Below the pieces are notes generated by a model that was not told the origin of the DNA, did no database searches, and was given only the letters and a program-made list of their open reading frames with translations. A stretch of 64,000 nt of DNA from a virus. Below, piece after piece: positions 1-64,000 of the stretch. Positions within the stretch are counted from its first letter, which is position 1. Each line of letters starts with the position of its first letter. Where the stretch lies: IMG/VR virus record IMGVR_UViG_3300031555_005516; one strand, written 5' to 3'. Made by a program: the position numbers and the translations under genes.

Positions 1-232
1 TACTCTATGCAACGATGGACGTAATATGGAATTAAATCATGAAAGGGTTGATGCAGAAGAATGATGATACAAAAAAACTATACAGAAGAGACTTATGAAA
101 ATGAGTTTATGTATCATATTTTAGTAGGAACAGATAGCAGTATTGAACGAGATATTATTTTAAAATATCTCGTTCAAGCTCAAGAAGAATATAAAGCTTG
201 GATAAGAAAATTTACAAAAGGAGAAAATAAAA

Positions 233-901
233 ATGGAAAATAAATATCAAGTAGTCGCGCTCATTGGAAAAGCGGGCGCAGGTAAAGATTCAATTCAAAA
301 GGCAACTTGCGAATTACACCCTCTCATGTTTCACCCTATTGTTAGCTGCACGACACGTCCAGCGCGAGAGGGGGAAGTAGAAGGAGTAGATTACCACTTT
401 ATTTCACTTAATGAGTTTACACGCAAGGTACTTAATGGAGATATGCTTGAAGCAACAGAGTTTAGAGATTGGTTTTATGGAACCACTCTTGATTCTCTTG
501 CAAAAGATAAAATCAATATTGGAGTATTTAATCCTGCAGGGGTTGAAGCTCTACTTGAAGATCCTCGCCTTAATGTTAAAGTATTTGAAATAGTGGCGCC
601 TGATAAGCAGCGATTAATGCGATATCTTAATAGAGAAGAATATCCCGATTGTGCAGAAATGTGCAGGCGCTACTTTACTGATGAAAAAGATTTTGCAGAC
701 CTTGATTTTGATAGATATAATATTGAAAATTATGATGGCACAAGTCTTGACCTTTTAGAAGACTGCAATAGTTGCATTGAAGAATTTGAAACAATGTGGC
801 AGACACTCGATGTAGATACTCAGTTCGAGACCATTAAGCGCTGGGAGAGCTCAATGTCGAAAAAAGCTGAATCAACTGATATTGAGGGCAGTGCTGAATA
901 A
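233..901 (+). CDS. P-loop nucleotide/nucleoside kinase-like protein (dNMP kinase-like)
   Basis: Intact 222-aa ORF with Walker A 'GKAGAGKDS' near the N-terminus. First gene of the nucleotide-metabolism module. TAA stop. Confidence 0.55.
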   Translation: MENKYQVVALIGKAGAGKDSIQKATCELHPLMFHPIVSCTTRPAREGEVEGVDYHFISLNEFTRKVLNGDMLEATEFRDWFYGTTLDSLAKDKINIGVFNPAGVEALLEDPRLNVKVFEIVAPDKQRLMRYLNREEYPDCAEMCRRYFTDEKDFADLDFDRYNIENYDGTSLDLLEDCNSCIEEFETMWQTLDVDTQFETIKRWESSMSKKAESTDIEGSAE

Positions 902-954
902 TTTATTTATAATAATTTTTATATATAAACGCAAAATCAAATGATAAGGAGAAA

Positions 955-1188
955 ATGACAATGAAATTTACTTTCTACTCAAAGCCTGGGTGTCCTCAAT
1001 GCAAAGTTCTTAAAATGAAGATGGACGCAGCAGGAATTCAATATACTCATATTGAGGATATAGATGCTATTATAGCACTTGGATATCAAGGAGCTCCTGT
1101 TTTAGTTACAGAAGTTGGAGCCTTTGTTGGACCAAACGCTATTAAATGGATAAATAACTGGATAAAGGAGCACCCAAATGGACATTAA
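955..1188 (+). CDS. nrdH: NrdH/glutaredoxin-like redoxin
   Basis: 77-aa ORF with a CPQC redox motif in a thioredoxin-fold context ('FYSKPGCPQCKVLK'). RBS 'aaggagaaaATG'. Lies immediately upstream of nrdD. Confidence 0.7.
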   Translation: MTMKFTFYSKPGCPQCKVLKMKMDAAGIQYTHIEDIDAIIALGYQGAPVLVTEVGAFVGPNAIKWINNWIKEHPNGH

Positions 1189-1285
1189 TGTTAGACTAAA
1201 AAAGAATTTTACCACAGCCTATAATAAGCTTTAGGCTGAATATGGAACAGATATTGCTAGACTCAATGGCTTTGACGATAATCAA

Positions 1286-4252
1286 TTGAGCTATGTTGAT
1301 TTTATTGATAATTTTATTGATACCAAAGTAGTTGCGGATGCGAGTATTGATGGCAATAGTAACGTCAGTAAAAAAGATATAGTAACACTTCTTAATGAAA
1401 TGCCAAAACCACATAGAAAATTATTGGCATATAATAAAATTCATTATGAAATGCAAAAAGAGTTTGGATTTAAAACAGCCAATGAATGGTTAAAATCTGA
1501 ATGGGTAGGACAGCTTTACATGCATGATGCTGATACTAGCACTTTTAAACACTACTGTTATAAAGGTGAAGAGCTTGTAACAGTAAGAGATAGAATACAC
1601 CGTGAATATACTTTTGCTTTAAAAGAGTTATATGACAATATTCTTGCAATGGATACCGAAGCAGAAGAGCGTTATGATGTATCTATTGAGCAAAAAGCAT
1701 TATTTCCAAAAAATATTGAGGTACTTGATATTAATGAAGAAACTGGAGAAAAATGTTGGACTAAGGTTACTCGCGCAGTTAAACACACAAATAATAAGTC
1801 TATGCGTTTTATTAAGTTAGCAAATGGTTTATCGCAAATTGTAACTGAAGACCATCCTATTATTACAGATTGTGGCGACATTCCTGCAAAAGATGTAAAT
1901 GATGAATATCGTGTCTTTACCATTCAACCCTCTTGCTCATTCAATTGCGAATTGCCTTTTAAACAAAATCAATTAAAAGATTTAGGATGGGTCACTGGCA
2001 TGGCCTTATCTGAAGGCAATGTTATAAATAATAGACAATTTGTTATAGCACAAAAATTAAATTCTATTCAAGCAGAGAAAATGAGACAAATTTTAAATAC
2101 TCATGAAATTCCTTTTGCAGAAAGTGGAGATAGAAAATTTTATCTGCACAACAGTGAATTCCAAAAATGGTTAATTTCTTTATTCAATAAACAAACTTCT
2201 GTTAATAAATGTTTGCCTTCTTATTTTATGCAATTACCATCAGATTTTATGGATGGGGTTATTGCAGGAATGATTGATGGAGATGGTACTATTGATGGAT
2301 ATAAGAATAGACATTGTCATATCCGTATTGCTTCAGAAGTTCTTTGTCGCCAGTTAAGCATGTATTTGCACTCAAAAGGAATCTTTGTAGGAGATAGAAC
2401 ACCATTTAGATATAATAGAATTGGAAGCTTTGAACAAAAGCTACCAATGTTCGGTATCGGCTTTACTCTTACAAATGAGGAATATTTTTTAAACATTGGA
2501 AGCGTTAAAATTCAAGAAAAATATACGCCTTTAACTCGAAAAGGCAATTTTAAAAATAAACAATATGAATACAACTATGGATGGGTTTCAATTATTGATA
2601 ACTCAGAGTATATTGATGAATGCCCTGAGGTATATGACTTAACAACAGAAACAGGTCATTTTATTTGTAATAATATTCTATCTCATAACTGTTTTGCTTA
2701 TGATCTAAAAGATTTAGCCGAAAAAGGACTTTATTTTATAGGAGCTCCATTTAATCCCGAACCTGCAAAACATTTAACAACTTTTGTAGACTTCGTTAAA
2801 GAATATATTAGTTATGCATCTAATCGTTCATCAGGCGCCGTCGGTTTGCCTAACCTTATTCCTTATATGTGGTATTTTTGGCATAAAGACGTTGAGTCTG
2901 ATTACCTTGGCTTAGCTTCAAGTGGCAATGCTGAAAAATATGCGCGCCAGAACTTTCAGCGTTTTGTCTACGCCGTAAATCAGCCTTATGTTCGTGATGG
3001 TTCGCAAAGCGCTTTTACTAACACAAGTGTATTTGATCGCCCCTATTATGAAGCATTATTTGGCGGTAGCGAATTTCCCGATGGCAGCTTTATGATTGAC
3101 TATGAAGAGGATATTATTGAGTTTCAAAAATGGTACATGGAAGAAGTTGCAGAAATTAGATCTCATAATATGTTTACTTTCCCAGTGCTTTCAATCTCTT
3201 TGCTAAAACAAGATGGAGAGTTCCAAGATGAGGAATTTGCGCGCTGGGCCGTAAAGCATAACATGCGTTGGTCAGATAGTAACTTGTTTATTGATGACTC
3301 TGTGACTTCACTTTCCAACTGTTGCCGTTTAAAGAGCGATATTAAGGATCTGGGTTATTTTAATAGTATCGGAGGTACTGCGCTTAAAGTTGGTTCTGTA
3401 AAAGTATCTACTATTAATCTTGCGCGCCTGGCGCTTGATACGAATAGTGAATTTGAATATCTAATGGAATTAAGAAAGCGCACTTTACTTAATCTTCAGG
3501 CTCTTCATTGTGTTAGAAATATTATTCGTCGTAATGTTGAAAAAGGACTTCTCCCCAATTTCTCTATGGGGCTTGTAGATTTTGAACATCTCTATAACAC
3601 TATTGGCTTTATTGGCGTTTATGAAACAATGAAGCGCTTTGGCTATACTCGCACAGATGATTTTGGAAATGTATACTATACAGAAGAAGCGTCTTCGCTT
3701 GGTCAGAGAATTTTCCAAACGATGCGTGAGGTTGCTGATCAGTTTATTGAAGATATGAGTGCCGACTATCATATTAACACAGAGCAGATCCCTGGAGAGT
3801 CAGCCGCCGCCAAACTAATGCGTAAAGATAAATTCTTCTATCCAGATTCTGATATCTTTGATCTTCCTTTATATGGCAATCAATTTATTCCTCTTGGTAT
3901 TCAAACTACTCTTGCGGAACGTGTTAGAATTGCCGCGGAGTTTGATGGCTACTGCAATGGAGGTTCAATTCTTCACGCCAATATTGATGCTCCATTTGAC
4001 AATTTTGATAAAGCTTGGGAAATGGTTAACTATATTTCTGATGCTGGAGTAACATATTTTGCTTTTAATACTAAAATCCAAGCTTGCGATAATAATCATG
4101 CGTTTTATGGTCACGAATGCCCCGTTTGTGGTCGTCCAGTTGAAACCGAATATACAAGAATTGTAGGCTTTTATACACCGATTAAAACTTGGTCAAAAGA
4201 GCGCACAAATGAATATAAAATGAGAAAATGGGAGCCAGTAAATAAAAAATGA
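1286..4252 (+). CDS. nrdD: Anaerobic (class III) ribonucleoside-triphosphate reductase NrdD, interrupted by an intein
   Basis: 988-aa ORF. The N-terminal 'LYMHDADT' matches the T4/E. coli NrdD 'IHVHDIDY' region. The C-terminal 'CPVCGRPV...TRIVGFYTP' is the zinc-ribbon plus glycyl-radical motif. The two exteins total about 610 aa, normal NrdD length. The stop overlaps the nrdG start (ATGA). Confidence 0.85.
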   Translation: MSYVDFIDNFIDTKVVADASIDGNSNVSKKDIVTLLNEMPKPHRKLLAYNKIHYEMQKEFGFKTANEWLKSEWVGQLYMHDADTSTFKHYCYKGEELVTVRDRIHREYTFALKELYDNILAMDTEAEERYDVSIEQKALFPKNIEVLDINEETGEKCWTKVTRAVKHTNNKSMRFIKLANGLSQIVTEDHPIITDCGDIPAKDVNDEYRVFTIQPSCSFNCELPFKQNQLKDLGWVTGMALSEGNVINNRQFVIAQKLNSIQAEKMRQILNTHEIPFAESGDRKFYLHNSEFQKWLISLFNKQTSVNKCLPSYFMQLPSDFMDGVIAGMIDGDGTIDGYKNRHCHIRIASEVLCRQLSMYLHSKGIFVGDRTPFRYNRIGSFEQKLPMFGIGFTLTNEEYFLNIGSVKIQEKYTPLTRKGNFKNKQYEYNYGWVSIIDNSEYIDECPEVYDLTTETGHFICNNILSHNCFAYDLKDLAEKGLYFIGAPFNPEPAKHLTTFVDFVKEYISYASNRSSGAVGLPNLIPYMWYFWHKDVESDYLGLASSGNAEKYARQNFQRFVYAVNQPYVRDGSQSAFTNTSVFDRPYYEALFGGSEFPDGSFMIDYEEDIIEFQKWYMEEVAEIRSHNMFTFPVLSISLLKQDGEFQDEEFARWAVKHNMRWSDSNLFIDDSVTSLSNCCRLKSDIKDLGYFNSIGGTALKVGSVKVSTINLARLALDTNSEFEYLMELRKRTLLNLQALHCVRNIIRRNVEKGLLPNFSMGLVDFEHLYNTIGFIGVYETMKRFGYTRTDDFGNVYYTEEASSLGQRIFQTMREVADQFIEDMSADYHINTEQIPGESAAAKLMRKDKFFYPDSDIFDLPLYGNQFIPLGIQTTLAERVRIAAEFDGYCNGGSILHANIDAPFDNFDKAWEMVNYISDAGVTYFAFNTKIQACDNNHAFYGHECPVCGRPVETEYTRIVGFYTPIKTWSKERTNEYKMRKWEPVNKK
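1556..2689 (+). mobile_element. Intein (~378 aa) with a LAGLIDADG homing-endonuclease core, inserted in nrdD
   Basis: Begins with Cys ('HY|CYKGEELV') and ends 'ILSHN' followed by a +1 Cys ('CFAYDL'). Two LAGLIDADG-type blocks ('LGWVTGMALSEGNV', 'DGVIAGMIDGDGTIDG'). Inserted directly before the conserved active-site Cys of NrdD (T4 'NCCLVDLKG'). Confidence 0.75.
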
Positions 4253-4731
4253 AAGTCAAAGGAATTATAACAGAAGATTTCGTTAATTATAAAATTCCTT
4301 CTTTAACAATAGAAACTCCTTATTGCAAAGGTTTTAAATGTGATCGAGAATGCGGCATGCCAGTGTGTCAAAATAGTACATTGGCAAATATGCCAACTCT
4401 TGATTATTCAATAGACTCTATTATTGAGCTATATCAAAAGACTCCGTTTACACATGCAATAGTATTTCAAGGATTGGAGCCTTTTGATACCTTTGAAGAC
4501 TTATATGACTTTCTCTTTGTTTTTAGAGAATGTTATTTAATAGAAGATGATGTTGTTATTTACACAGGATATTATGATGATGAGATTGAAGATCAATTAA
4601 ATCAATTAAAACATTTTTCAAATATTATTGTAAAATTTGGACGCTATATTCCAGATATGGAATCTCACTTTGATGATATACTTGGAGTAAAACTTGCTAG
4701 TCCAAATCAATATGCAGAAAGGATTAGCTAA
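4249..4731 (+). CDS. nrdG: Anaerobic RNR activating enzyme NrdG-like (radical SAM)
   Basis: 160 aa, Cys cluster 'CKGFKCDRECGMPVC' near the N-terminus. 'AIVFQGLEPFD...VVIYTGYYDDEIEDQL' parallels E. coli NrdG 'ISLSGGDPL...IWVWTGYKLDEL'. Translationally coupled to nrdD. The Cys spacing is atypical (C-x4-C-x3-C). Confidence 0.6.
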   Translation: MKVKGIITEDFVNYKIPSLTIETPYCKGFKCDRECGMPVCQNSTLANMPTLDYSIDSIIELYQKTPFTHAIVFQGLEPFDTFEDLYDFLFVFRECYLIEDDVVIYTGYYDDEIEDQLNQLKHFSNIIVKFGRYIPDMESHFDDILGVKLASPNQYAERIS

Positions 4732-4925
4732 TGAAAATTCAAAAATATGCAAGCGAAGAACTTGCGCAGGAAATACGCGCATCAATTCGTGCATCTCAAG
4801 GTCATTGCCCTTGTGTATTGGAGCCTTTTAGAAATCAAGATACTTTATGTATGTGTAAAGAATTTCGTGAAGCGCCAAAAGGAACGATATGTAACTGTGG
4901 CTTATATATTAAAGTAGAAGATTGA
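4731..4925 (+). CDS. Small Cys-rich protein resembling the ferredoxin:thioredoxin reductase catalytic subunit (FTR/FDR-like)
   Basis: 64 aa with 'HCPC...(12)...CMC...(11)...CNC' spacing, like FtrC 'CPC...CPC...CHC'. Overlaps the nrdG stop (taATGa). Confidence 0.4.
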   Translation: MKIQKYASEELAQEIRASIRASQGHCPCVLEPFRNQDTLCMCKEFREAPKGTICNCGLYIKVED

Positions 4926-4983
4926 ATTTTATAAAAAATTAAGTTATAATTATTTTATAAAGTGATAAGGAGAAGAAAAGTTA

Positions 4984-5415
4984 ATGAAAGCCAATTATGA
5001 AGATAAAATTCCAAAGAAAACTTCTGAAGTTGCTCTTGGAAATCTCTATGATATGAATAAGCAACTTATGGAAAAAGAAATTGCTTTAACAGATAATGAA
5101 ATTATGAATACTGAAACCGCTCTTAAAAACTGGCTCATAGAATTATTTGCACAAAAATATTTTATGCTACTCTGTCACGAGCGCAGAGATTATACTCTAT
5201 TTAATCTTGATAAAACCAATTCTTGGAAAATACCACAAGATAAAATGGTAATGGACGCAGCCTTTGATATTATAGAATGTTTAACAAACCGCGGAACTTT
5301 ACTTTCAGCCGAATTACAGCCAGACGGAGTATGGGAGTTTTGGATTAAAGATCTTGTTGAAGGATGTTTTGCTTATTACCTTTTCCCATATGGTGAAGCA
5401 GTGCTTGAGTATTGA
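4984..5415 (+). CDS. Hypothetical protein
   Basis: Intact 143-aa ORF, RBS 'aaggagaag' upstream, TGA stop. No recognisable motif. Confidence 0.4.
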   Translation: MKANYEDKIPKKTSEVALGNLYDMNKQLMEKEIALTDNEIMNTETALKNWLIELFAQKYFMLLCHERRDYTLFNLDKTNSWKIPQDKMVMDAAFDIIECLTNRGTLLSAELQPDGVWEFWIKDLVEGCFAYYLFPYGEAVLEY

Positions 5416-5425
5416 GGAGGATAAT

Positions 5426-5686
5426 ATGAATAAACTTATAATTCGTGGAGAGCCTGTTGGACCCTTTCAATATGTTTACGCTTATGTAGATGGGAAGAAA
5501 GTAGAGTCAATAGGAATACAAATAGAAAATTTAGAAGATGTCGTTTTTGCATTGCTAAAAAATTATAATATTAATCATATTGATTTATCAGGTTCTCGCC
5601 TTTATATGGAAGGAATAGAGCATATGTTAAAAAACGCACAGATAAATGATTATGAAAAAACGGAACTTATTTTTAAATATGTTTAA
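5426..5686 (+). CDS. Hypothetical protein
   Basis: The track ORF 5354..5686 has an internal ATG at 5426 preceded by 'gaggagga'. Likely true start 'MNKLIIRGEPVG'. TAA stop. Confidence 0.4.
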   Translation: MNKLIIRGEPVGPFQYVYAYVDGKKVESIGIQIENLEDVVFALLKNYNINHIDLSGSRLYMEGIEHMLKNAQINDYEKTELIFKYV

Positions 5687-5697
5687 GGAGAAGGTGT

Positions 5698-5949
5698 ATG
5701 GGAAAATATCTAATAAAAACAACAGAAGAACATCGTGCAGATACTGAGCATGAAGCGGCAGAGCTTATCAATGCAGCAAAAGCAGATGGACGCTATATTC
5801 TTGTAAAATATTCCTCTGTAAAAAAAGAAAGAAAGCAAAAAGGTGAAATAGTAGACGAATATTATATAGTCACCTTGGTGAAAGGATTTGATGATCCTAA
5901 GCAACCCTGTGGTGAAGCCTCAGTAGAATATAAGATAGGAGCGTTTTAA
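5698..5949 (+). CDS. Hypothetical protein
   Basis: 83-aa ORF, RBS 'aaggagaagg'. Charged, no motif recognised. Confidence 0.4.
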   Translation: MGKYLIKTTEEHRADTEHEAAELINAAKADGRYILVKYSSVKKERKQKGEIVDEYYIVTLVKGFDDPKQPCGEASVEYKIGAF

Positions 5950-5951
5950 TT

Positions 5952-6437
5952 ATGAATATAAAAAATGGATATATAGTTACTCCGAAGCCCGCTAATGAAA
6001 TCGATTTTGTAAAGCTTACATCTACTGCACAGGCGCCGGTGAGAGGAAGTGAACAGGCAGCTGGTTGGGATCTTCATGCTGACCTAGAAGGATTAGATAA
6101 GATTGTAATTCCACCTCACACCTATAAAAAAATTTCTACAGGCATTGCTATTGCGCTGCCTCGGGGCACCTTTGGCGCAATCTATCCACGAAGCGGAATG
6201 GCAACAAAAAGAGGTCTTGTATTAGCAAACACTGTTGGCATCATTGATGCAGACTATAGAGGCGCCGTCATAGTGGCTCTTAAAAATGATTCTGATGAAA
6301 TGCAAGTAATAGAACATGGTGAACGTATTGCGCAACTAATTGTTCAACCTTTCTTACGTGTTGAATTTAACGAAGTAAAATCAATTGGAACTACTGCTCG
6401 AGCAGATGGTGGCTTTGGGTCAAGTGGAAATAAATAA
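5952..6437 (+). CDS. dut: dUTP diphosphatase (dUTPase)
   Basis: All five dUTPase motifs are visible: 'AAGWDL', 'PRSGMA', 'GIIDADYRG', 'GERIAQL', 'RADGGFGSSG'. Confidence 0.9.
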   Translation: MNIKNGYIVTPKPANEIDFVKLTSTAQAPVRGSEQAAGWDLHADLEGLDKIVIPPHTYKKISTGIAIALPRGTFGAIYPRSGMATKRGLVLANTVGIIDADYRGAVIVALKNDSDEMQVIEHGERIAQLIVQPFLRVEFNEVKSIGTTARADGGFGSSGNK

Positions 6438-6519: not shown

Positions 6520-7029
6520 ATGTACTTATTGGCATTAGATGCTTCAACTAAAGCAACAGGAATTGCAATTTTTAAAGATAAAGAATTAATTGGATAGGCT
6601 TGTATTACCTCTTCATCTACAGATCTATATAAAAGAATACATAAAATGGTGGACAATATTCTAGCTGTCGTAGATTAGCTAGGAATTAATTAGATTGTAA
6701 TGGAAGAAGTTATTCCAGATCATAGTAAAAACACAAATACATTTCGTGCATTAATGTATTTATAGGCATTAATTCATATTGAAATGCACGATAAACATCC
6801 AGAGGTATAGATTGAAATGATTTATCCTAGCTCTTGGCGCTCAGTATGTGGCATAGAAGATGGACGCAGCTCTAAACGAGAATAGAAAAAGCAAAAAGAT
6901 ATTGATTTCGCAAATAAAACATATAATCTATCTTTAACCAATGATGATATAGCAGATGCCGTATGCATAGGCCATGCCTATCTTAATCCTAAAAAAGAAA
7001 AAGATTATACCGCAGCTTTGGAATGGTAA
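6520..7029 (+). CDS. RuvC-like Holliday-junction resolvase containing 5 in-frame TAG codons (recoded)
   Basis: RBS 'ggaggtg' then ATG. 'MYLLALDASTKATGIAIF' matches RuvC 'ILGIDPGSRVTGYGV', and the C-terminal 'DADAVCIGHAY' matches RuvC 'DAADALAIAI'. Five in-frame TAGs (first at 6595-6597) and no TAA/TGA until 7027-7029. One TAG aligns with Gln in the RuvC 'KLGQARG' block ('MYL*ALI'). Confidence 0.7.
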
Positions 7030-7047: not shown

Positions 7048-7371
7048 TTATCTATATCTTCCTCTTTTTATTCTTTCAAACATCATATCAGTAATGTCTA
7101 TAATCTCCTCTCCAAACACAGAAATAATTTCTGCAATTAACTCCTCTTCATCGTGCTCTAACAGGACATTATACGCAAACATTGAGGCATGTACTAATTC
7201 ATGACACAATACCTGCTCAAACATCTCACTATGAAGCGCATTACTGATATAGATAGTTTTAGTAGTATCATTACACGCTCCTAAAGCATATCTACCATTT
7301 GGCATTAAAAGTGCAACGTCGTATGGATAAACTAAAACTATCTACCAATATTCTCCATTAATAGTAAACAT
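7048..7371 (-). CDS. Small HExxH metallopeptidase-like protein (1 in-frame TAG)
   Basis: Track ORF 7048..7305 carries 'CHELVH'. It extends upstream through a TAG at 7342-7344 to an ATG at 7369-7371 ('MFTINGEYW*IVLVYPYDVALLMPNG...'). A TAA lies immediately upstream. Confidence 0.45.
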
Positions 7372-8108
7372 TATTTTACTTTAGATGCTAACATAGAGAT
7401 CTTCTATTGAAGAAGTTGTTTCTCTTCTGGAGATGCATCTTGAATCATTTCAGTCATATCATTTGCAAGCTCTTGCATATAAGATTCAAGTTCCTGCATT
7501 TGTTTGGACTTGTCATGATGTCCTTTTCCTTCCATATACATCTTGCGGCGCTCACCGCTTCTTCCTTCTTTAGGGTCGCGCATCATTGCATGTCTTGGGT
7601 CCTGCATCATACCGTCTCTATAAATATAGGGCATAGGTTCATGATACATAGAATATGAAGAAGCTCCTCCATCATTATACATAGAGTAGGATGTTTGTCC
7701 GTCATCATAGCGTCTGATCATTCCATCCATATATCCTCTAGTGCCGCCTCCGCGAGCATTGTTTCCACCAGAAGAACGACCGCCGTTACCACCATTTGAT
7801 GAAGAGCCTCTGCCACCACTATTGCCGCCTTGCGCATACATAGTGCCAGGATAATATCTCTCATCATAACGAGGATCATACATTTCTGCTGGGTATGGAG
7901 AATAATACATAGGCATACTGCCTTTTTCTTCATTAGCTTGCTTTTCCATTGATTCTGTTATAGTGCAATAGTAAACAGCTTCAGAAAGGTCTTTAATCAT
8001 ATCCATTACTTCGCCAAGCTCTTCAGCATTGACTTTTTCAAGGTTTCCATAAACTTGTCCTTCAGCAACGCCAATAAGACATTCTTTCATTTTCTTTAAA
8101 TTTTCCAT
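7371..8108 (-). CDS. Low-complexity Gly/Asn/Met/Tyr-rich hypothetical protein
   Basis: The 234-aa track ORF 7404..8108 ends on TAG. Read-through adds 10 codons to a TAA at 7371-7373, overlapping the next start (TAATG). The middle is low-complexity 'GGNSGGRGSSSNGGNGGRSSGGNN'. Confidence 0.4.
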
Positions 8109-8109
8109 A

Positions 8110-8529
8110 TTATGCCACCCTTTCTATGATTAAATTTGCGTTTTGTACATCGATATCTTGTGTACTTGTGTTTCTTGCTGCAACAGAAATGCAGCAACCT
8201 GCTGGAACATCAATATAAGCTGCGCTAGCCACATTTGCAAATTCCTCTACCGCAGCAGGAGTTTGAATCATAGTTGTTGAAGCAATAGCCTCTCCATTTA
8301 CCGAGATGGCAATTGAAATGGCTTCTACGGTTCCATCTGCAGGAATAGCAATATTTCCGCTAAAGAAAACCTTGAATCTTGCGCGACACTGATTGGTAAT
8401 GCCGCGCAAGGTAATTAAGCCACTTCCTGCTCGATGGAGAATCGAGTTACATCCACTAACAACTTCATCTGTAAACTGAACATTTTCGCCAGCACCAACT
8501 GTTTGTAAAGCATTAGCAATTAATTCCAT
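8110..8529 (-). CDS. Hypothetical protein (possible beta-rich/jelly-roll domain)
   Basis: Intact 139-aa ORF, hydrophobic/Ala-rich. No motif identified. Confidence 0.4.
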   Translation of the reverse strand: MELIANALQTVGAGENVQFTDEVVSGCNSILHRAGSGLITLRGITNQCRARFKVFFSGNIAIPADGTVEAISIAISVNGEAIASTTMIQTPAAVEEFANVASAAYIDVPAGCCISVAARNTSTQDIDVQNANLIIERVA

Positions 8530-8554
8530 TCTTTTTCAAGCCTCCATTCTTAGA

Positions 8555-9325
8555 TTAGAAGCAACCGCAGCCGCAGTTAGAAGATGCGATCTGAACCTGA
8601 GGGGTATAGCAGCAATTAGGATTTGGAACTACATACGCAGGAATTGGGCAATCTCTGCCAAGTCTACGAATAAGTTCTGCTGTTTGAGCCTCTTGGTTAG
8701 CAGTGATAAATGCATTCTGATTTGCTTGAGATGCCGCAAACTTAAGAGATTGATTCTCCGCAGTAAGAGAAGCGATCTTATCTTGCGTCATGAAGTCAAT
8801 GATTCTATCACCAAGTTTGTCAATAGCCTGAAGCGTGTTGCAATTATAGGTTTGAGCAGCAAAACGGTTTTCCATATTAGCCTTCTCAATGTCACAGCAG
8901 CAAGCCGCTAACTGGCTAGATAGGGCATTAGTGTTAATTACACCCTGAGTTTTTACGTCTGCGATAGCGGCACGAGTGTCGCAGCAGCATTGTGCAAGTT
9001 GATTACCAAGTGCGGTAAAGCCTGCCTGATTTTGGTATCCAAGAGTACAGATTGCATTATCTACTCCATGGAATCCAGATGTGATAGCATTACTTAATGA
9101 ATAAGTGCTATCAGCGAGACCGTAGGTTTGGTTATCAAGTTTAGAAATAAGGGTTTGCTGATCAACAGCCGCGCGAACGTCGTCTTTAGTTGCACAAGCG
9201 CCCGAACTAGAGCCAAATCCATAGAAGTAGGGATTAAGAACGTATCCACTTCCTCCTTCGGAACCTCCATTGCCCCAGCCGTTTCTTCCCCATCCAGTGA
9301 ATAGGAAAAGAAGAATGATCCCTTC
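8555..9325 (-). CDS. Gly-rich and Cys-rich secreted-type protein; start and frame ambiguous
   Basis: Track ORF 8555..8875 continues upstream without a stop through repeated '...LAQCCCDTRAAIADVKTQ...LAACCCDIEKAN...' and a Gly-rich N-region 'GWGRNGWGNGGSEGGSGY'. It ends 'NCGCGCF'. The only ATG with an RBS ('aggataacATG', 9325-9327) is in the -1 frame. Confidence 0.3.
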   Translation of the reverse strand, partial: EGIILLFLFTGWGRNGWGNGGSEGGSGYVLNPYFYGFGSSSGACATKDDVRAAVDQQTLISKLDNQTYGLADSTYSLSNAITSGFHGVDNAICTLGYQNQAGFTALGNQLAQCCCDTRAAIADVKTQGVINTNALSSQLAACCCDIEKANMENRFAAQTYNCNTLQAIDKLGDRIIDFMTQDKIASLTAENQSLKFAASQANQNAFITANQEAQTAELIRRLGRDCPIPAYVVPNPNCCYTPQVQIASSNCGCGCF

Positions 9326-9561
9326 ATGTTATCCTATAAGCTTTTTATCTTATAGTTCTATTACTTGTTATTTGTAATAGGTCAGCATATCTTTTCTATT
9401 AATTTTTCCAAAAAATTTTAATAGTCGCGGCCTCGTGGCGGGATTATATCTTTTCACCCGCTATGCGTTGCCCCTGACTATACTTAGTATAGCCTTCGGT
9501 TCTGATTCCCATTTCAGGGTTCCAGCTTAATTCCGCGATTTAAAGATGGCAGATCGGTTTA

Positions 9562-9969: not shown

Positions 9970-10428
9970 ATTAAATGTTTTTACAGTTTGTGGCTTAGGC
10001 GCGGGACCAGCTTCAGTATTCTTTTCCTAGACTAAGCTTTCTTTAAATCTGGCTAATATTTCATCAAGCTCATCTTTAGTAACGTATACTGGAGTCGAGG
10101 CGCTCTAATCGGCTCCGGCGCCGCTTAATTCAAAAATATTAAAAGCCGCAGTTCCATCCATATTTATCTGTTTGGTATAAATTTTCTTATTTCCCAGATC
10201 TGGAAAAACATAGAGCGAGCCATCTAAATCAATCTAACTAGCTCTTGCTTCATCGATTGAAACTACTGGGCGACCTTTAATATAATTTGGTTGCATCATC
10301 AAAGGCTGCGTGTAGGTTGGCTAAACTGGAGCAGTCATCTCTGCCACCTAAGAAGCTTGTCTTTGATAAGTTTGTGGCGCATAATAATACGCTGGCGCCT
10401 ACTGAGGTAGATTATTGAACATATTCAT
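9970..10428 (-). CDS. Hypothetical Gln/Tyr/Pro-rich protein with several in-frame TAGs
   Basis: RBS 'aaaggagaataaaaaATG' near 10428. Encodes 'MNMFNNLPQ*APAYYYAPQTYQRQAS*VAEMTAPV*PTYTQ...'. No TAA/TGA until about 9970. Confidence 0.35.
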
Positions 10429-10563: not shown

Positions 10564-10605
10564 TCTATTTTTATTCAAAATTTTAATATTTTATTTCTTT
10601 CAATA

Positions 10606-59070: not shown

Positions 59071-59382
59071 ATGTATAGTATTTGGAAATATAATGTTGAG
59101 CCTAATATTATTAATCAGGAATATTATTTGCCAGAGGGCGCGCAGATTGTTAGCTTTGGATTGGATCCTGCAGATAATATGTGTTTTTGGGCAAGAGTAA
59201 ACACTAATGCGCCAAAGGTCGCGCGCATGGTTGCTTGTGTAGGAACAGGGTGGCCGCTTGATAACGTGTATAGTAAAAGCAATGGGCGCCAAGTGGAGTT
59301 TATAGGAAGTTTAACACATGGGCCTTATGTTTGGCATCTATTTGATTTGGGAGAGTGCGTAAACGATCGAATTGGCGGTTAA
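59071..59382 (+). CDS. Early hypothetical protein (103 aa)
   Basis: Intact ORF with RBS, followed by a terminator at 59426-59451. Confidence 0.45.
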   Translation: MYSIWKYNVEPNIINQEYYLPEGAQIVSFGLDPADNMCFWARVNTNAPKVARMVACVGTGWPLDNVYSKSNGRQVEFIGSLTHGPYVWHLFDLGECVNDRIGG

Positions 59383-59425
59383 TATACGCATGGGTAAAAA
59401 ATAGAGTGAATATGAGAAAAGAGAA

Positions 59426-59451
59426 AGAGGGATTTAAAATCCCTCTTTTTT
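59426..59451 (+). terminator. Rho-independent terminator
   Basis: 'agaggg-atttaaaat-ccctct' plus a T-run. Confidence 0.6.
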
Positions 59452-59665
59452 GATGAAATGGGGATGATTTTCGTTTTTTAGAATAAAAAGAATTTTCTAG
59501 GAGAGAGTTTTCGTGAGCAAAGGGGTATTGGCAATTTCTGGAAAATTTATCCTGAAAGCCTCCCATTTTTTACCATTTCCAAATGTTACCAATATCTCTG
59601 TGTAGTCTTGGCAAAACGCACAAAAAAATACCTAAAAAAATTTTAAACTTTGTGCATTTTACCTC

Positions 59666-59693
59666 TTGCAATTATTTTTAAAAGTGGTATAAT
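59666..59693 (+). promoter_or_regulatory. Early promoter
   Basis: 'TTGCAAttatttttaaaagtgGTATAAT' (extended -10). Confidence 0.5.
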
Positions 59694-59751
59694 ATTTACA
59701 GAGCTTGAGAGAGTCAAGCAAAAAACAAAAAAAGAAAAGAGAGGTAAAAAA

Positions 59752-59901
59752 ATGATGAACACAAACAACAATCTTTTAACTTTCAGAATTGCAAACAAGT
59801 ACAATGGAACAGTAAAACACATTAAAGGTATTAATGTATGGGAAGCAATGAAAAACAATGGTTGCGACTGTAAAGAATGGATATTGGTTGCAATAAATTA
59901 A
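59752..59901 (+). CDS. Early small hypothetical protein (~49 aa)
   Basis: RBS 'agaggtaaaaaaATGATG'. Lies inside track ORF 59650..59901. Confidence 0.35.
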   Translation: MMNTNNNLLTFRIANKYNGTVKHIKGINVWEAMKNNGCDCKEWILVAIN

Positions 59902-59961
59902 CAATATCTAAAAATGGTCACTTTAACAAAAAAAAGAAAAAATAAAAAGGGGATAAAAAAA

Positions 59962-60216
59962 ATGGCTAACACAATATGCTACAAACTTAAAAAGCCCGTC
60001 GTTTATAACAAAGGCACAAGCTGGGAACAAGAACACTATACTTTTTTAGCTTGTTACGGTTCTGATAATATAGAAAACCATAACGCAAGACTCCACAAGC
60101 TAAACACCGACGAACAAGCAAGAAAAGAGTTTTGTGAGTATTACAGAATTGACGTCAATAATGTTGAATACTTTTTTAATAATGTTCAAGATGAGTTTGA
60201 TACAAGGGGGGATTAA
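59962..60216 (+). CDS. Early small hypothetical protein (~84 aa)
   Basis: RBS 'aaaaggggataaaaaaaATG'. Lies inside track ORF 59914..60216. Confidence 0.4.
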   Translation: MANTICYKLKKPVVYNKGTSWEQEHYTFLACYGSDNIENHNARLHKLNTDEQARKEFCEYYRIDVNNVEYFFNNVQDEFDTRGD

Positions 60217-60219
60217 ATA

Positions 60220-60402
60220 ATGGTAGTTATTGACAGATACATAGACAATAAAAGAGAGCTTGAGTTTGAGATAGCGTTGCAAGAGTTAGAAAACGAATTA
60301 AAGCCACATATTCCAACAGATGAGGAGCTTGATGAAATGGCGCTATACTTTGAATATAAAGCGAATATCGGTAACACTCAAAAGTTAATAGGGGCGCAAT
60401 AA
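60220..60402 (+). CDS. Early small hypothetical protein (60 aa)
   Basis: ATG 3 nt after the preceding stop ('ggattaaataATG'). A terminator follows at 60391-60409. Confidence 0.4.
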   Translation: MVVIDRYIDNKRELEFEIALQELENELKPHIPTDEELDEMALYFEYKANIGNTQKLIGAQ

Positions 60403-60433
60403 GCGCCCCGCTATATAAAAGGGGGATTTAAAA

Positions 60434-60739
60434 ATGAAAAAAACAGTAAAAATCTTTAACAATGAATATTTTTGCACTTATAACACAACAGCAGTTTTAG
60501 TATCTGAAAAATATGCGTATGGTATTTCTTATGATAATACCTTAACTGTTTACTCATATAAAAATACGTTGCTTGACCTCTTAACAAGCAATGAATATCT
60601 TACCGAGCTTATGAATGAACACGGCTATGAAATAACAAAAGACTGGAATAGGGGAGACATTATAATAATTAAAATATATATGCACTCATTCGACAAACCT
60701 GTGGAATTAAGTGTTGACGCATTTACAAATACATTTTAA
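60434..60739 (+). CDS. Early hypothetical protein (101 aa)
   Basis: RBS 'aaagggggatttaaaaATG'. Confidence 0.45.
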   Translation: MKKTVKIFNNEYFCTYNTTAVLVSEKYAYGISYDNTLTVYSYKNTLLDLLTSNEYLTELMNEHGYEITKDWNRGDIIIIKIYMHSFDKPVELSVDAFTNTF

Positions 60740-60853
60740 AAGAAGGGAGTATATAACAATGTTAGGTGAAATGTTGGGTTTTATATTGGTTATAGGCATT
60801 GCAAGTATTCCGACAATAGTAATATCCATATATCAAGAATACAAATATCATAA

Positions 60854-60871
60854 GGGGCTCAAATGAGCCCC
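60854..60871 (+). terminator. Hairpin (terminator/attenuator) overlapping the start of ORF 60863
   Basis: 'ggggctc-aaat-gagcccc'. Confidence 0.35.
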
Positions 60872-61108
60872 TACTCAAGAGGTAGGATTATGTTATATGC
60901 AAGAATAATATTATTAAGCGATAAGGGGCGCCAACCCCTTACCCGCAGAGTAGAGATACAAAGCATAGAGGATTATATTGCAAATAAGAAGTATTATCAA
61001 GAGCGCGCCATACTGTCATTATGCAAGAGTAGGGCGCTAACCCCTCGACACTTAGAGCAATACGGTTATACAAAGGTAACAGTTAAATTTGAGTATAAGG
61101 AGAATTAA
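60863..61108 (+). CDS. Early hypothetical protein (81 aa)
   Basis: Intact ORF, Arg/Lys-rich. Confidence 0.35.
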   Translation: MSPYSRGRIMLYARIILLSDKGRQPLTRRVEIQSIEDYIANKKYYQERAILSLCKSRALTPRHLEQYGYTKVTVKFEYKEN

Positions 61109-61112
61109 ACAA

Positions 61113-61409
61113 ATGAAAAGAATACATATCGAAAATGAGTTTACACAGTGGGCAGAATACCTTGCAAGATACTTTGGTGACGTCCTCGCCATATACGATA
61201 AAGAAGGGCGCAGAATGTGGGGAGACAGCGACAGTGAGCCATATATTGAGGTTAATAAATATCTGCCCCCAAGTGTATATCCTATCTATAAGGATATTGG
61301 GGAAGTGATAGCCTACTATGATATTATAGGGTTGACCGCCAAAGAGGTTGAGATACTTAAAACTATTATACCATTCATAGAGTCACAGCTTGATGACGAG
61401 GGCGCCTGA
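61113..61409 (+). CDS. Early hypothetical protein (~98 aa)
   Basis: RBS 'taaggagaattaaacaaATG'. Internal start of track ORF 61089..61409. A terminator hairpin 'gagggcgcctgagtgcgccctt' follows at about 61399-61420. Confidence 0.45.
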   Translation: MKRIHIENEFTQWAEYLARYFGDVLAIYDKEGRRMWGDSDSEPYIEVNKYLPPSVYPIYKDIGEVIAYYDIIGLTAKEVEILKTIIPFIESQLDDEGA

Positions 61410-61437
61410 GTGCGCCCTTATCCGCTTAATATTGACT

Positions 61438-61510
61438 GCGCGGCGCGTCATCCCCCGCGACGCGCCGCTAAAGCAATTTGTGAACGATTTGTAAATTATT
61501 TGTTTCCAAA
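61438..61510 (+). repeat. Conserved early-region intergenic element, copy 1 (GC hairpin with ATCCCCC loop plus GCAATTTGTGAACGATTTGTAAA box)
   Basis: 'gcggcgcgtc-atccccc-gcgacgcgccgc' then 'taaagcaatttgtgaacgatttgtaaattatttgtttccaaattgtaaat'. Homologous copies are at 62026-62100, 62763-62880 and 63567-63650. Confidence 0.5.
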
Positions 61511-61592
61511 TTGTAAATATTTTATGAACAAAACTTATCCCAATATTCATATACTGTTTACAAAAAATTCATAAAGAAATTTATAAAACCTA

Positions 61593-61621
61593 TTGACATT
61601 TAGTATCCATTGTGGTATAAT
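61593..61621 (+). promoter_or_regulatory. Strong consensus promoter driving the GC-rich non-coding transcript
   Basis: 'TTGACAtttagtatccattgtgGTATAAT': perfect -35, 17-nt spacer, extended -10 TGnTATAAT. Confidence 0.65.
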
Positions 61622-61627
61622 ATAAGT

Positions 61628-62020
61628 GTCAAAGGGAGAGCGGAGCGACAGACCTCGACAATCGCACCCAATCCACACGAGAGTAACGGCTGACCGCCCC
61701 TTGACCGACAGTTGGGATAGTCGATAACACCGTCCAGCTTGGCAACTGCAAAGTAGCCGCCCCCTATTGGTAGCGAAGGGGCGAACAACGACTACCCTAC
61801 CCCACTCCGAGGGCTTGTGTTCAATATCGGAGCGGAGCGTGGCTCTCCATAAACCACGACCAATAACCCGAGCCTACGGCATATAGTCGGGAGCGTTTTG
61901 GTAGGTAGCGTATAACCACCCTCATTCGAGCATATGACCAACCTCTTGCAGATGGCTTACCTCCTGTCCTCCTGCAAGAGGTAGACTATAAAGCGCCTTG
62001 CAGCATCAAGGCGCTTTTCC
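61628..62020 (+). ncRNA. Candidate structured non-coding RNA (~390 nt, class unidentified)
   Basis: Sharp GC jump (about 55% against 30% background). All three + frames are closed within 40 codons and there is no RBS. Long-range complementarity 'gggagagc' (61633-61640) with 'gctctcc' (61842-61848); local hairpins 'cgcccc...ggggcg' and 'cctcttgcag...ctgcaagagg'. Ends in terminator 'gcgccttg-cagcatc-aaggcgc' plus T-run (61993-62020). Confidence 0.5.
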
Positions 62021-62025
62021 TTTCG

Positions 62026-62100
62026 CCGTCGCGCCGGCGGTCGTGGCGCGACGTTTTACGCGATTTGTATAGGTTACACAAATATTTGATTGAAAGTTTG
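62026..62100 (+). repeat. Conserved early-region intergenic element, copy 2
   Basis: 'cgccgtcgcgcc-ggcggtcgt-ggcgcgacg' hairpin, then 'ttttacgcgatttgtataggttacacaaatatttgattgaaagtttgtgc'. Confidence 0.45.
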
Positions 62101-62112
62101 TGCATTCTGCCT

Positions 62113-62141
62113 ATTGACTTCTATCCCGATATGTGATATAA
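62113..62141 (+). promoter_or_regulatory. Early promoter
   Basis: 'TTGACTtctatcccgatatgtgaTATAAT' (extended -10 'tgtgatataat'). Confidence 0.55.
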
Positions 62142-62248
62142 TAATGGTACAGTAAGAGAGAGGAGATAAGGGTTGAAAAAGCACCCTCGCAATATGCACT
62201 CCTACCTTGCAAGGCTCTTTTACTGAATACATAATCAAGAGGTACACT

Positions 62249-62524
62249 ATGGACTACACCAAACTTACTCTTCATAACTGTCAGAACTTGGCGGTTCAGG
62301 AATTCGGCTTTGAGGATATTCACACTATCGCAATCGCGCAACTTGTTGACCTTGTTGCAGACGATATGCTCGACAAAGAGCGCGCAACCGCTATGGCGCA
62401 AATCATCTATGACCACGGCGCCAATAGCCTCATCTATAATGATGCGTGGGACGATGATTTCGTCGATGAAGCTGATGAGAGCGGCTTTGACCCCTATATG
62501 GGTTGCTACACGGGGGATTGCTAA
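62249..62524 (+). CDS. Early hypothetical protein (~91 aa)
   Basis: RBS 'aagaggtacactATG' inside track ORF 62207..62524. Acidic C-terminus. Confidence 0.4.
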   Translation: MDYTKLTLHNCQNLAVQEFGFEDIHTIAIAQLVDLVADDMLDKERATAMAQIIYDHGANSLIYNDAWDDDFVDEADESGFDPYMGCYTGDC

Positions 62525-62553
62525 GGCAATCCCCATAAGGAAAGGAGATACAT

Positions 62554-62730
62554 ATGACAGTAAGAGAACTTATAAAGAAACTTGAAGAAATGCCTCAAGA
62601 CGCACCTATTATGCTTGAGGTTATGAGTGGCTATGTCGGATATGTAGAGGTCAAGACTTCAACAGACAATCCTGACGTTGAAATATACGAAACATCAGAT
62701 GATGTAGTTTGTATTCAAGCGATAAACTAA
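62554..62730 (+). CDS. Early small hypothetical protein (58 aa)
   Basis: RBS 'aaaggagatacatATG'. Below the 60-aa cut-off of the ORF track. A terminator follows. Confidence 0.4.
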   Translation: MTVRELIKKLEEMPQDAPIMLEVMSGYVGYVEVKTSTDNPDVEIYETSDDVVCIQAIN

Positions 62731-62733
62731 TAT

Positions 62734-62759
62734 AGAGGGCTTTGCGCCCTCTTCTTTTC
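62734..62759 (+). terminator. Rho-independent terminator
   Basis: 'agagggc-tttgc-gccctct' plus T-run. Confidence 0.6.
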
Positions 62760-62762
62760 TTT

Positions 62763-62880
62763 GCCGGCTCGCACACAATCGCGCGCGAGCCGCTTTGCGC
62801 AATTGTGAACAGTTTGTAAACTTTTTTACACAAAATTATGAACCATTCATTTCAAATTTGTTACCCGTAAAGGCAATAGT
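62763..62880 (+). repeat. Conserved early-region intergenic element, copy 3
   Basis: 'cggctcgc-acacaatcgcgc-gcgagccg' then 'ctttgcgcaattgtgaacagtttgtaaac...ttatgaaccattcatttcaaatttgtt'. A further 'ttatgaaccttttgtaaacttgttcg' copy at 62896-62925. Confidence 0.45.
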
Positions 62881-62953
62881 TTAACACCTACTATTAAATT
62901 ATGAACCTTTTGTAAACTTGTTCGATATTTCAAAAAAACTTTTGCAAAAACAC

Positions 62954-62982
62954 TTGACAAATAGATTTATTTATGATATAAT
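62954..62982 (+). promoter_or_regulatory. Early promoter
   Basis: 'TTGACAaatagatttatttatgaTATAAT'. Confidence 0.55.
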
Positions 62983-63125
62983 ATGTATGTAATCAAGAGC
63001 AAGGCTCGGAAACGATGAACGAAAACTCGGAGAACGCACGGTTGAGATACCCGAAACCATTGAGTAGTTTAGAGCAGACAGACAACTTGCTCTTGATACA
63101 AATACATAAAAGAGAGGTAAAAACA

Positions 63126-63368
63126 ATGTTAGACACAAACAAAGCAATATGGGATATCACAGAGGTTGGCGAGTGGCTTGATAGCAACTTTGTAGACGAA
63201 GAAAGCGGAGAAGTCTTCTTTGTAGAACTCAAGAAAGAAGACGGAGAAGAAATGGAAGACTTTATAGCAAAATGTCAAGAGATTGCTGATGACAACTTTG
63301 ACAATGCAATATTTCTTGGTCTTGTAGACGGAGAAACCGCTGAGATACTTGGCTATGACACTTATTGA
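63126..63368 (+). CDS. Early small acidic hypothetical protein (~80 aa)
   Basis: RBS 'agagaggtaaaaacaATG' inside track ORF 63015..63368. Terminator 'gagagggcgcaaagccctctctc' at 63367-63389. Confidence 0.4.
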   Translation: MLDTNKAIWDITEVGEWLDSNFVDEESGEVFFVELKKEDGEEMEDFIAKCQEIADDNFDNAIFLGLVDGETAEILGYDTY

Positions 63369-63414
63369 GAGGGCGCAAAGCCCTCTCTCATAAAAAATAT
63401 AAGGAGAAGAAAAA

Positions 63415-63546
63415 ATGAAAGTCTATGTAGTATGTGAAGATTATACTTGCGCTTTTGAGGATTTGTTTACCAATAAAAAAGAGGCGGAAAAAAGAGCCAA
63501 AGAGATTGGCGGTTATGTAATTCCATATGACTTAAAGGACTGCTAA
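63415..63546 (+). CDS. Early small hypothetical protein (43 aa)
   Basis: RBS 'aaggagaagaaaaaATG'. Encodes 'MKVYVVCEDYTCAFEDLFTNKKEAEKRAKEIGGYVIPYDLKDC'. Confidence 0.35.
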   Translation: MKVYVVCEDYTCAFEDLFTNKKEAEKRAKEIGGYVIPYDLKDC

Positions 63547-63566
63547 CACAGCAGTCTTTTTTCACT

Positions 63567-63650
63567 CGCCGTGCCGCAATCCCCCGCCGCGGCACGTTTT
63601 ATGCAATCTGCACAAATCATCGTCTTTTTTTCTTCAAAACTTTGTTACAT
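63567..63650 (+). repeat. Conserved early-region intergenic element, copy 4
   Basis: 'cgtgccgc-aatccccc-gccgcggcacg' then 'ttttatgcaatctgcacaaatcatcg...'. Confidence 0.45.
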
Positions 63651-63657
63651 TTGACTA

Positions 63658-63686
63658 TTGACAAAATCCCGCATTTGTGATATAAT
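63658..63686 (+). promoter_or_regulatory. Early promoter
   Basis: 'TTGACAaaatcccgcatttgtgaTATAAT'. Confidence 0.55.
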
Positions 63687-63720
63687 ATAAGTGTAATAAA
63701 GGAAAGGGGTAATACATACT

Positions 63721-64000
63721 ATGATTAACATTCGTTCAATTCTCAAGCTGAAGGATAATGACGGTTTAACACTCAAGAAGGGCGCGCCTATCATATATAA
63801 GACAGGTTATCAAGTCGCAACAGAGGGTATAGAATGTCGCACAGCAAGAGAAGCAATCAATGCTGTTAAGGCATATGGCGGTAACTGCGGTGTATGGTTT
63901 AGCAATGGCATATACTACATTGATAAATCACATCGTGAGAGCACTCTCAAAAAGGCGCTTGAGGTTGGGCGCGCTTGTGAGCAAATCTCCATACTGAGAT
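63721..64000 (+). CDS. Early hypothetical protein (partial, continues beyond the window)
   Basis: RBS 'aaaggaaaggggtaatacatactATG'. Open to the window end. Confidence 0.35.
   Translation, partial: MINIRSILKLKDNDGLTLKKGAPIIYKTGYQVATEGIECRTAREAINAVKAYGGNCGVWFSNGIYYIDKSHRESTLKKALEVGRACEQISILR

Follow-up and report, generated by a model that had tools for sequence, protein, structure and literature searches.

Phages that translate the stop codon TAG as glutamine (genetic code 15) have been described as being built of code blocks, in which the early genes can be read under either code and the late genes are recoded (Yutin 2021; 10.1101/2021.08.26.457843; 10.1101/2022.06.29.495998); Ivanova 2014 is among the sources for this block structure of TAG-to-Gln phages, as represented in the papers that cite it. 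Here we describe the distribution of in-frame TAG codons along a 64,000-nucleotide stretch of the IMG/VR virus record IMGVR_UViG_3300031555_005516 (the window), and in particular a block of tail-fibre genes on its minus strand (14858-26094) that is poor in TAG while its flanks are rich in it. The window resembles the published code-block phages in that its early genes lie on one strand, without TAG as a sense or a stop codon, its structural genes lie on the other strand with TAG as Gln, and its standard-code relatives, here the loci L008 and L009, lack TAG stops, as published. It differs from them in arrangement: in the published phages the switch of code coincides with the switch of strand and the either-code block is the early block, whereas the window has at least three either-code blocks within the late strand (the fibre genes, the head genes with the major tail gene, and 8110-9327), and a RuvC-like gene on the early strand has the highest TAG density. 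The split between early and late genes is already published; the cited code-block papers (for Ivanova 2014, as the citing papers present it) describe neither the late-strand either-code blocks nor a conserved TAG-poor fibre block.

Another point of comparison is Phass-1 (OQ749652), a member of the 'Caudoviricetes code 15 clade' (PMC10607447), which the window phage resembles in a genome of ~136 kb, a tape-measure protein of ~3150 aa, the genes for NrdD, NrdG and dUTPase, the use of TAG as Gln, and the absence of TAG from the capsid block and from receptor-binding fibre genes (both of them in Phass-1). The major capsid protein (MCP) is 44.7% identical to that of Phass-1 and 37% to that of Enterococcus phage EF1; the terminase and portal proteins are 43% and 39% identical to those of Phass-1, and the 3167-aa protein at 32940-42443 matches its tape measure with 25% identity over 1042 aa. 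One of the window's fibres has an identical counterpart on a contig of 135,988 bp. To judge by these matches, the window represents about half of a siphovirus genome of ~136 kb from the Phass-1/Enterococcus phage EF1 group. Its genes are preceded by strong ribosome-binding sites of the AGGAG type, and the host is probably a Firmicute. The two phages nevertheless share no similarity at the DNA level, where the three described Phassvirus genomes agree at ~80% or more, and a megablast of the structural region and the island of TAG-free genes described below against a phage collection gave no DNA-level match; the window phage therefore lies outside the Phass-1 genus. Their fibre genes also differ, and whereas no suppressor tRNA gene is visible in the window, Phass-1 carries three, of which two lie directly upstream of NrdD.

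Tailed phages are known for the mosaicism of their tail fibres and for autonomous cassettes of the 'moron' type. The fibres of the window are likewise mosaic at the level of domains, with conserved N-terminal anchors, and one cassette among them recurs in unrelated phage genomes and has predicted terminators of its own and a possible promoter; unlike in those known cases, the exchange appears to cross a genetic-code boundary, and the block is marked by the missing reassigned codon. Highly expressed genes are also known to avoid poorly decoded codons through translational selection. In the window, the genes for the MCP, the major tail protein and the near fibres share a codon-usage class, rich in AAG and C-ending codons, in which TAG is absent or rare, but the codon avoided here is a former stop whose reading requires a suppressor.

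Glutamine TAG codons and the fibre block

Genes were called with stops restricted to TAA and TGA and with starts set mechanically at the first ATG, and TAG, CAA and CAG were tallied per gene. Reading TAG as sense raises the coverage of the window by stop-to-stop open reading frames (ORFs) of at least 100 codons from 64% under the standard code to 93%, while reading TGA as sense gives only 68%. When the TAG positions of the window were aligned to L009, a standard-code relative with an MCP 54% identical, 24 of 66 fell on Gln, and the next commonest residues (E, R, D, K and N) are the usual substitutes for it. The window phage reads TAG as Gln (code 15), and none of its genes in the window ends in TAG; the codon is used solely as sense, by some of the late genes. 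L008 and L009, with the same MCP identity, have no TAG stop among 15 and 17 genes, respectively, and no sign of TAG as sense, in keeping with the published idea that TAG stops are lost before reassignment; the clade holds both codes.

In the TAG-rich late genes, the ratio CAA:CAG:TAG is 258:45:209, and TAG makes up ~41% of the Gln codons. With a third-position GC content (GC3) of ~0.2, mutational bias runs towards A rather than G at the third codon position and towards T rather than C at the first, and a ratio of ~5:1:5 would follow if TAG were interchangeable with the other two; we infer that the observed ratio is the one a freely synonymous TAG would reach under AT-biased mutation. The terminase, which is about 90% identical to that of the related locus L004, supports such free interchange, as 10 of its 22 conserved Gln sites involve TAG and at 7 of those 10 one phage has TAG and the other CAA or CAG. 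TAG-rich genes flank the fibre block on both sides. Downstream in transcription, the genes at 10640-12508 (tail/baseplate-like), 12523-14208 and 14246-14740 (all minus strand) hold 19 TAG codons, ~40% of their Gln codons, in agreement with their description as TAG-dense in the first-pass annotation; upstream, the minus-strand genes at 26075-44826 include one for a 1649-aa protein with 38 TAG and that for the tape-measure-like protein with 69.

The same annotation had singled out six consecutive minus-strand genes at 15364-21733 as an island without TAG. Re-translation found no in-frame TAG in any of the six, and the TAG-free run reaches further, to 14858, by way of a DUF5658 gene (15008-15322) and an ORF of 39 aa (14858-14977). 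The seven genes at 15008-21733 contain 39 CAA, 23 CAG and no TAG codon, as well as 87 out-of-frame TAG trinucleotides, so the absence of TAG is specific to the reading frame. At the late-gene rate of 41%, the probability of finding no TAG in 62 Gln codons is ~1e-14; the difference in TAG frequency that had been proposed between gene classes is borne out (island versus other late genes, Fisher p=3.5e-11), and a TAG-free run of this length has p=0.004 under shuffled gene order. The island is real and far from chance. Its upstream neighbours at 21843-26094, however, had been taken for TAG-dense and are in fact TAG-poor: the two further fibre genes there (21837-26094, minus strand; 963 and 450 aa) have 4 TAG in 1413 codons, or 4 of 39 Gln codons (10%; p=6e-5 below the TAG-rich genes). 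Across 14858-26094 the ratio CAA:CAG:TAG is 64:33:4, and CAG, the one-step precursor of TAG, is plentiful yet unconverted. The island is the TAG-free core of a larger TAG-poor fibre block.

This block consists of three near fibre genes (19835-26094) and a far cassette. The last of the near genes, at the upstream end of the island, encodes a TAG-free, mosaic fibre of 632 aa (19835-21733, minus strand), whose N-terminal 250-500 aa are common to relatives and whose C-terminal part differs. Directly after it, a terminator-like hairpin, GGGTGGGTA/TACCCACCC, followed by a T run (19803-19820, minus strand), forms the upstream boundary of the far cassette, which comprises seven minus-strand genes (14858-19727) with no TAG in 54 Gln codons: three fibre-like genes (18939-19727, 17839-18939 and 17452-17820), a BspA-type LRR protein (16377-17432), a GT2 glycosyltransferase (15364-16344), the DUF5658 membrane protein and the 39-aa Cys-rich ORF, which is the last one free of TAG. 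Just past this ORF lies a second terminator-like hairpin, of 11 pairs and then a T run (14815-14843, minus strand), and the first gene beyond it, 14246-14740, contains TAG. A promoter-like site (19777-19748, minus strand) follows the upstream hairpin; the match is weak (9/12), and such matches are in modest excess in the window (61 versus 44.8 expected after shuffling). Between the 963-aa and 632-aa fibre genes there is also an 8-bp GC-rich hairpin, CAGGCGCC ... GGCGCCTG (21740-21836, minus strand), with no clear T run, which could be a site of RNA processing or attenuation.

Several proteins of the block resemble one another in part. The fibres encoded at 18939-19727, 19835-21733 and 24742-26094 begin with a similar segment of 60-70 aa that gives a weak Mtd_N-like hit (17.8 bits, against a Pfam cut-off of 26.3 bits) and is the sole part that they have in common with the replacement genes in the loci L107, L109 and L112; it probably serves as a shared anchor domain and as the place where fibre genes recombine. 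The Mtd_N hits raised the question of a diversity-generating retroelement, which was dropped for want of a repeat pair: 14800-27900 has no direct repeats of at least 40 nt, although no search for a reverse transcriptase was made. The LRR, 122-aa and 366-aa proteins (16377-18939) share an N-terminus of the form 'L..LPD.GG' and a segment 'GGSGGG..ETCT.T.SS', a similarity that points to internal duplication and shuffling within the cassette.

The fibre block is TAG-poor in related recoded phages as well. We compared four loci that share tail and fibre genes with the window, three of them (L107, L112 and L111) reached through homologues of the 632-aa fibre and the fourth (L001) through another search, with TAG counts that rest on loci of 12-24 kb. 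The share of TAG among Gln codons is 4% in the fibre block and 30% in the flanks of L107, 1% and 40% in L112, 0% and 20% in L111, 14% and 42% in L001, and 4% and 37% in the window, and the difference is significant in each of the five (p<1e-3; the window test was run with 101 CAA/CAG codons where the true number is 97, and the result is unchanged). In place of the far cassette, L107 has genes for proteins of 1278 and 311 aa, and L112 has genes for proteins of 814 and 847 aa. Since TAG poverty recurs despite different fibre genes, it belongs to the locus as such in this group of phages and cannot be put down to a single recent arrival. The fibre locus of the closest relatives (L004, L005 and L007) was not reached: a scan of viral contigs with the TAG-rich protein of 12523-14208 found no relative.

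The first-pass annotation had named three TAG-free sets of genes in the window (two early, and the island). Those sets exist, but three more on the late strand had been overlooked, at 44893-45795, 48930-52620 and 8110-9327, the last lying at the far end of the late strand. The set at 48930-52620 is a block of head genes on the minus strand, with a scaffold-like gene (51214-52620), a 176-aa gene (50659-51189), the MCP gene (49589-50641) and a gene at 48930-49505; the plus-strand ORF 50635-51207, called mechanically, is spurious, as a better-supported gene lies on the other strand. Homologues of the scaffold-like, MCP and 48930-49505 genes are TAG-free in L004, L007 and Phass-1; in the more distant L010, TAG occurs in two of the three, although the scaffold-like, MCP and major tail homologues are nearly free of it there as well. 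The gene at 44893-45795 (minus strand) encodes a virion structural, major tail-like protein; its homologues in L004 and L007 lack TAG, as does the Phass-1 gene that matches its N-terminus. In the relatives, the neighbours of these head and major tail homologues are TAG-rich. With an MCP 85% and a terminase 89% identical to those of L004, the head and major tail genes have been inherited together with the genome, and gene flow does not explain their lack of TAG.

Codon usage further separates the two halves of the fibre block. Among the late genes, a higher share of two-fold codons ending in C goes with a lower share of TAG (Spearman -0.60, p=1e-4). A leave-one-out test of codon usage that ignored Gln codons grouped the three near fibre genes (19835-26094) with the MCP and major tail genes in a single class, marked by more AAG and C-ending codons and, in the MCP and major tail genes, by no TAG; the far cassette genes fall outside it and have ordinary usage. 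At conserved Gln sites of recoded genomes, codon pairs that differ involve TAG in 26 of 33 cases in TAG-rich genes and in 4 of 18 in fibre genes (p=2e-4), and four-fold sites are 40-53% different, so there has been enough time for TAG to arise.

Gene exchange and competing explanations

Exchange of fibre genes can be traced across these loci. The protein of 24742-26094 is 84% identical to its counterpart in L107 and 79% in L111, but only 25-36% in L112 and L001, whereas the neighbouring genes (26632-27847) are about 50% identical to those of L107 (49-52%) and ~50% to those of L112 and L001. The 632-aa fibre has 848 homologues, which are partial and mosaic and mostly span one third to one half of it. 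For the GT2 protein, 153 homologues came to light in viral contigs whose GC content spans 26-54%, and in ~75 of 80 viral loci its gene adjoins an LRR or fibre gene, directly following a BspA-type LRR or fibre gene; the GT2-bearing loci (L018-L097) come from genomes of 30-285 kb, with 26-54% GC. It is a widespread fibre-linked glycosyltransferase, for which a virion-linked role seems at least as likely as a Gtr-like modification of the host surface. Its closest homologues, 82-91% identical in protein and at most 82% in DNA, come from loci of 21-31 kb without sense TAG. Among these, L019, L020/L021 and L024 repeat the window's order of fibre, LRR and GT2 genes (with DUF5658 as well in L020/L021) and have, outside the fibre block, no homologue of its tail, tape-measure or head genes; in L024 the shared order runs from the 24742-like gene through GT2. 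The L024 contig, extended to 31 kb, encodes proteins of 1504 and 1677 aa and has no sense TAG, so this phage uses the standard code, at least in its structural region.

The account we favour, with moderate confidence, is that two processes together keep TAG out of the fibre genes: repeated import from a gene pool that is mostly standard-code, and selection against TAG in abundant virion proteins. The fibre block would be a recombination hot spot, at which fibre alleles and whole cassettes are swapped among divergent phages, most of them standard-code. As TAG is a stop in the donor phages, incoming alleles would arrive free of it, and they would be replaced in turn before changes from CAG to TAG could build up. 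Import best fits the far cassette, which is bracketed by terminators, has ordinary codon usage and shows a gene order common to standard-code phages. In proteins made in quantity, TAG would be selected against, presumably because incomplete suppression costs yield. The capsid, scaffold and major tail genes are the ones that selection of this kind explains best; it may extend to the three near fibres, which belong to the same codon-usage class. Genes without TAG can be translated under either code, and their expression is then independent of the suppressor.

A number of observations weigh against this account. The sequence data alone do not separate the two processes for the fibres. The 'standard-code' loci rarely stop at TAG (1 of 84 in L018, L019, L020, L024 and L083), and apart from L024 they might be TAG-free parts of recoded genomes. 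The DNA of the nearest GT2 gene is only 82% identical, with saturated four-fold sites, and so identifies no recent donor. The pattern is not universal: the GT2 region of L085 is fully TAG-rich, and in crAss-like phages a published tail tube gene prefers TAG, which would be a counter-example. Finally, the 64-kb window has no tRNA gene of any kind, and thus no suppressor with a CUA anticodon, and only a tRNA-Thr was found in 17 kb of flanking sequence; exact-pattern scans of metagenome and viral collections for the remainder of the genome gave no match. Over half of the ~136-kb genome is unseen, and a suppressor tRNA is presumed by analogy with Phass-1, which has three.

An alternative that we regard as possible, though less likely than not, is that selection keeps the receptor-binding fibre block free of TAG, as sense and as stop codon alike, so that it remains a host-range module readable under either code and open to trade with the much larger pool of standard-code phages; its lack of TAG would then be more than a side effect of recent transfer.

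That selection acts alone seems somewhat unlikely. On this explanation suppression is leaky, truncated subunits reduce yield or poison multimers, and no horizontal transfer is needed. It accounts well for the TAG-free capsid, scaffold and major tail genes conserved across relatives, for the falling TAG share as C-ending codons increase, for the placement of the near fibres in the MCP codon class and for the shortage of TAG-involving changes at conserved Gln sites of the fibre genes. The far cassette, however, lacks the MCP-like codon signature, and exchange within the fibre block is directly visible. The portal, terminase, tape-measure and baseplate proteins are multimeric too, yet their genes are TAG-rich, and TAG is tolerated in GT2 homologues elsewhere: L085 has six TAGs in its copy, three of them at invariant Gln columns, and the copies in L092 and L079 have one each at a conserved Gln, so the GT2 family need not be TAG-free. 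In L043, also from a recoded phage, the two in-frame TAGs of the GT2 homologue (10001-10972) both fall on invariant Glu columns, one of them in the conserved HED motif, which leaves two readings: an inactive copy, or a phage that translates TAG as something other than Gln.

The first-pass annotation had suggested that the 6.4-kb island was recently acquired from a standard-code phage and is too young to have gained TAG. Part of this idea stands for the far half (14858-19727): the cassette is absent from L107, which differs there, it is flanked by terminators on both sides, and its order of GT2, LRR, fibre and DUF5658 genes matches unrelated loci without sense TAG, whose GT2 proteins are 82-91% identical. 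As a single recent event, acquisition is doubtful. TAG poverty extends to 26094 and recurs in four relatives with other fibre genes, the N-terminal half of the 632-aa fibre is common to relatives, and the nearest GT2 gene has diverged to 82% in DNA with saturated synonymous sites. Foreign composition was sought as a sign of transfer and is absent, with a GC3 of 0.20-0.31 in the far genes and island against 0.16-0.34 in the flanks; likewise, the comparison of codon usage that had been proposed revealed no difference, as relative synonymous codon usage in the island correlates at 0.91 with both the early and the TAG-rich late genes, and the far genes look like resident ones.

We give little credence to a further suggestion of that annotation, namely that the cassette has to be expressed before suppression sets in. 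Selection on timing would then exclude TAG, and the purpose might be, for example, to modify the host surface or to supply pre-made fibres. The two terminators and the promoter-like site, the only hint in this direction, could define a transcription unit of its own, and GT2 and the small membrane proteins could act on the cell envelope. The cassette nonetheless lies mid-way in the late strand, among virion genes, and the promoter match is weak, its like occurring only modestly above the shuffled expectation. GT2 homologues of recoded phages carry TAG at conserved Gln, the regular position of GT2 beside a fibre or LRR gene suggests a virion-related role, and the near fibres are TAG-poor although they lie outside the terminator-bracketed unit. 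A composition effect, in the form of few Gln codons (29 per 1000 codons in the island, 45 per 1000 in TAG-rich genes) or avoidance of the TAG trinucleotide, is refuted by the counts of Gln codons and out-of-frame TAGs and by the two chance probabilities given above.

Early-strand genes and other features

The early genes of the plus strand, comprising a nucleotide-metabolism block (61-6437; guanylate kinase, NrdD with an intein, NrdG and dUTPase) and small ORFs at 59071-64000, are translatable under either code. We found no TAG stop and no internal TAG in 41 plus-strand genes, drawn from these regions and from L098 and L102, which extend them. The small ORFs have no in-frame TAG from 59 kb onward, as had been stated in the first-pass annotation; its statement that the genes at 233-6437 are TAG-free also stands for the standard-code calls, which show none over 61-6437, with one reservation for NrdD. 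An ATG at 1178 that overlaps the end of the preceding gene has AAGGAG 8 nt upstream and would put a TAG at codon 19 (1232-1234), while the standard-code start is a TTG at 1286 without a visible ribosome-binding site; translation of this 'early' gene may therefore rely on suppression, or it may begin at two sites. The annotation had also proposed that late genes become translatable only once suppression is active, which the data fit but which is already the published model (Borges et al.; Mgcod).

NrdD (1178-4252, plus strand) contains an insertion of ~370 aa with features of an intein and a homing endonuclease, namely a Cys-led block after residue ~127, a 'GMIDGDG' motif and an 'SHN/C' end; the same protein in L098 has a weak precomputed Pfam hit to Intein_splicing. 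Upstream of the window, at 2162-7250 of L098, a DNA polymerase III alpha gene is apparently interrupted by a GIY-YIG endonuclease gene, and downstream of the window L102 encodes a PemK-type toxin. The RuvC-like Holliday-junction resolvase gene (6520-7029, plus strand) has TAG at 6 of its 7 Gln codons, the highest density in the window, which fits a nuclease restrained until late infection. Minus-strand ORFs called mechanically at 61052-62536 are probably spurious, since better-supported genes lie on the opposite strand. At the far end of the late strand, the TAG-free genes at 8110-9327 (minus strand) belong to a second TAG-poor cluster of higher GC (7371-9327), in which 7371-8108 encodes a low-complexity protein rich in Gly, Ser, Met and Tyr and 8110-8529 a 139-aa protein (phrog_20016) with homologues in 9 GT2-bearing loci.

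Implications for recoded phages

Stop-codon recoding in phages is now read as a timing switch, with early genes in the standard code and late genes recoded, and the window and its relatives show a finer pattern within the late region. TAG supplies ~41% of the Gln codons in the TAG-rich late genes of the window (20-46% in the flanks of its relatives), whereas the presumably most abundant virion proteins have no TAG and the fibre block has hardly any. If this pattern is general, the TAG density of each gene would be a record of both selection for yield and residence time in a recoded genome, and gene-calling software that applies a single code to a whole strand or block would have to take it into account. 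A change of code would then not cut a phage off from the common pool of receptor-binding genes. Should the fibre block instead prove to be an either-code module kept by selection, incompatibility of genetic codes would shape the exchange of modules among phages, and a TAG-free island would mark a host-range module.

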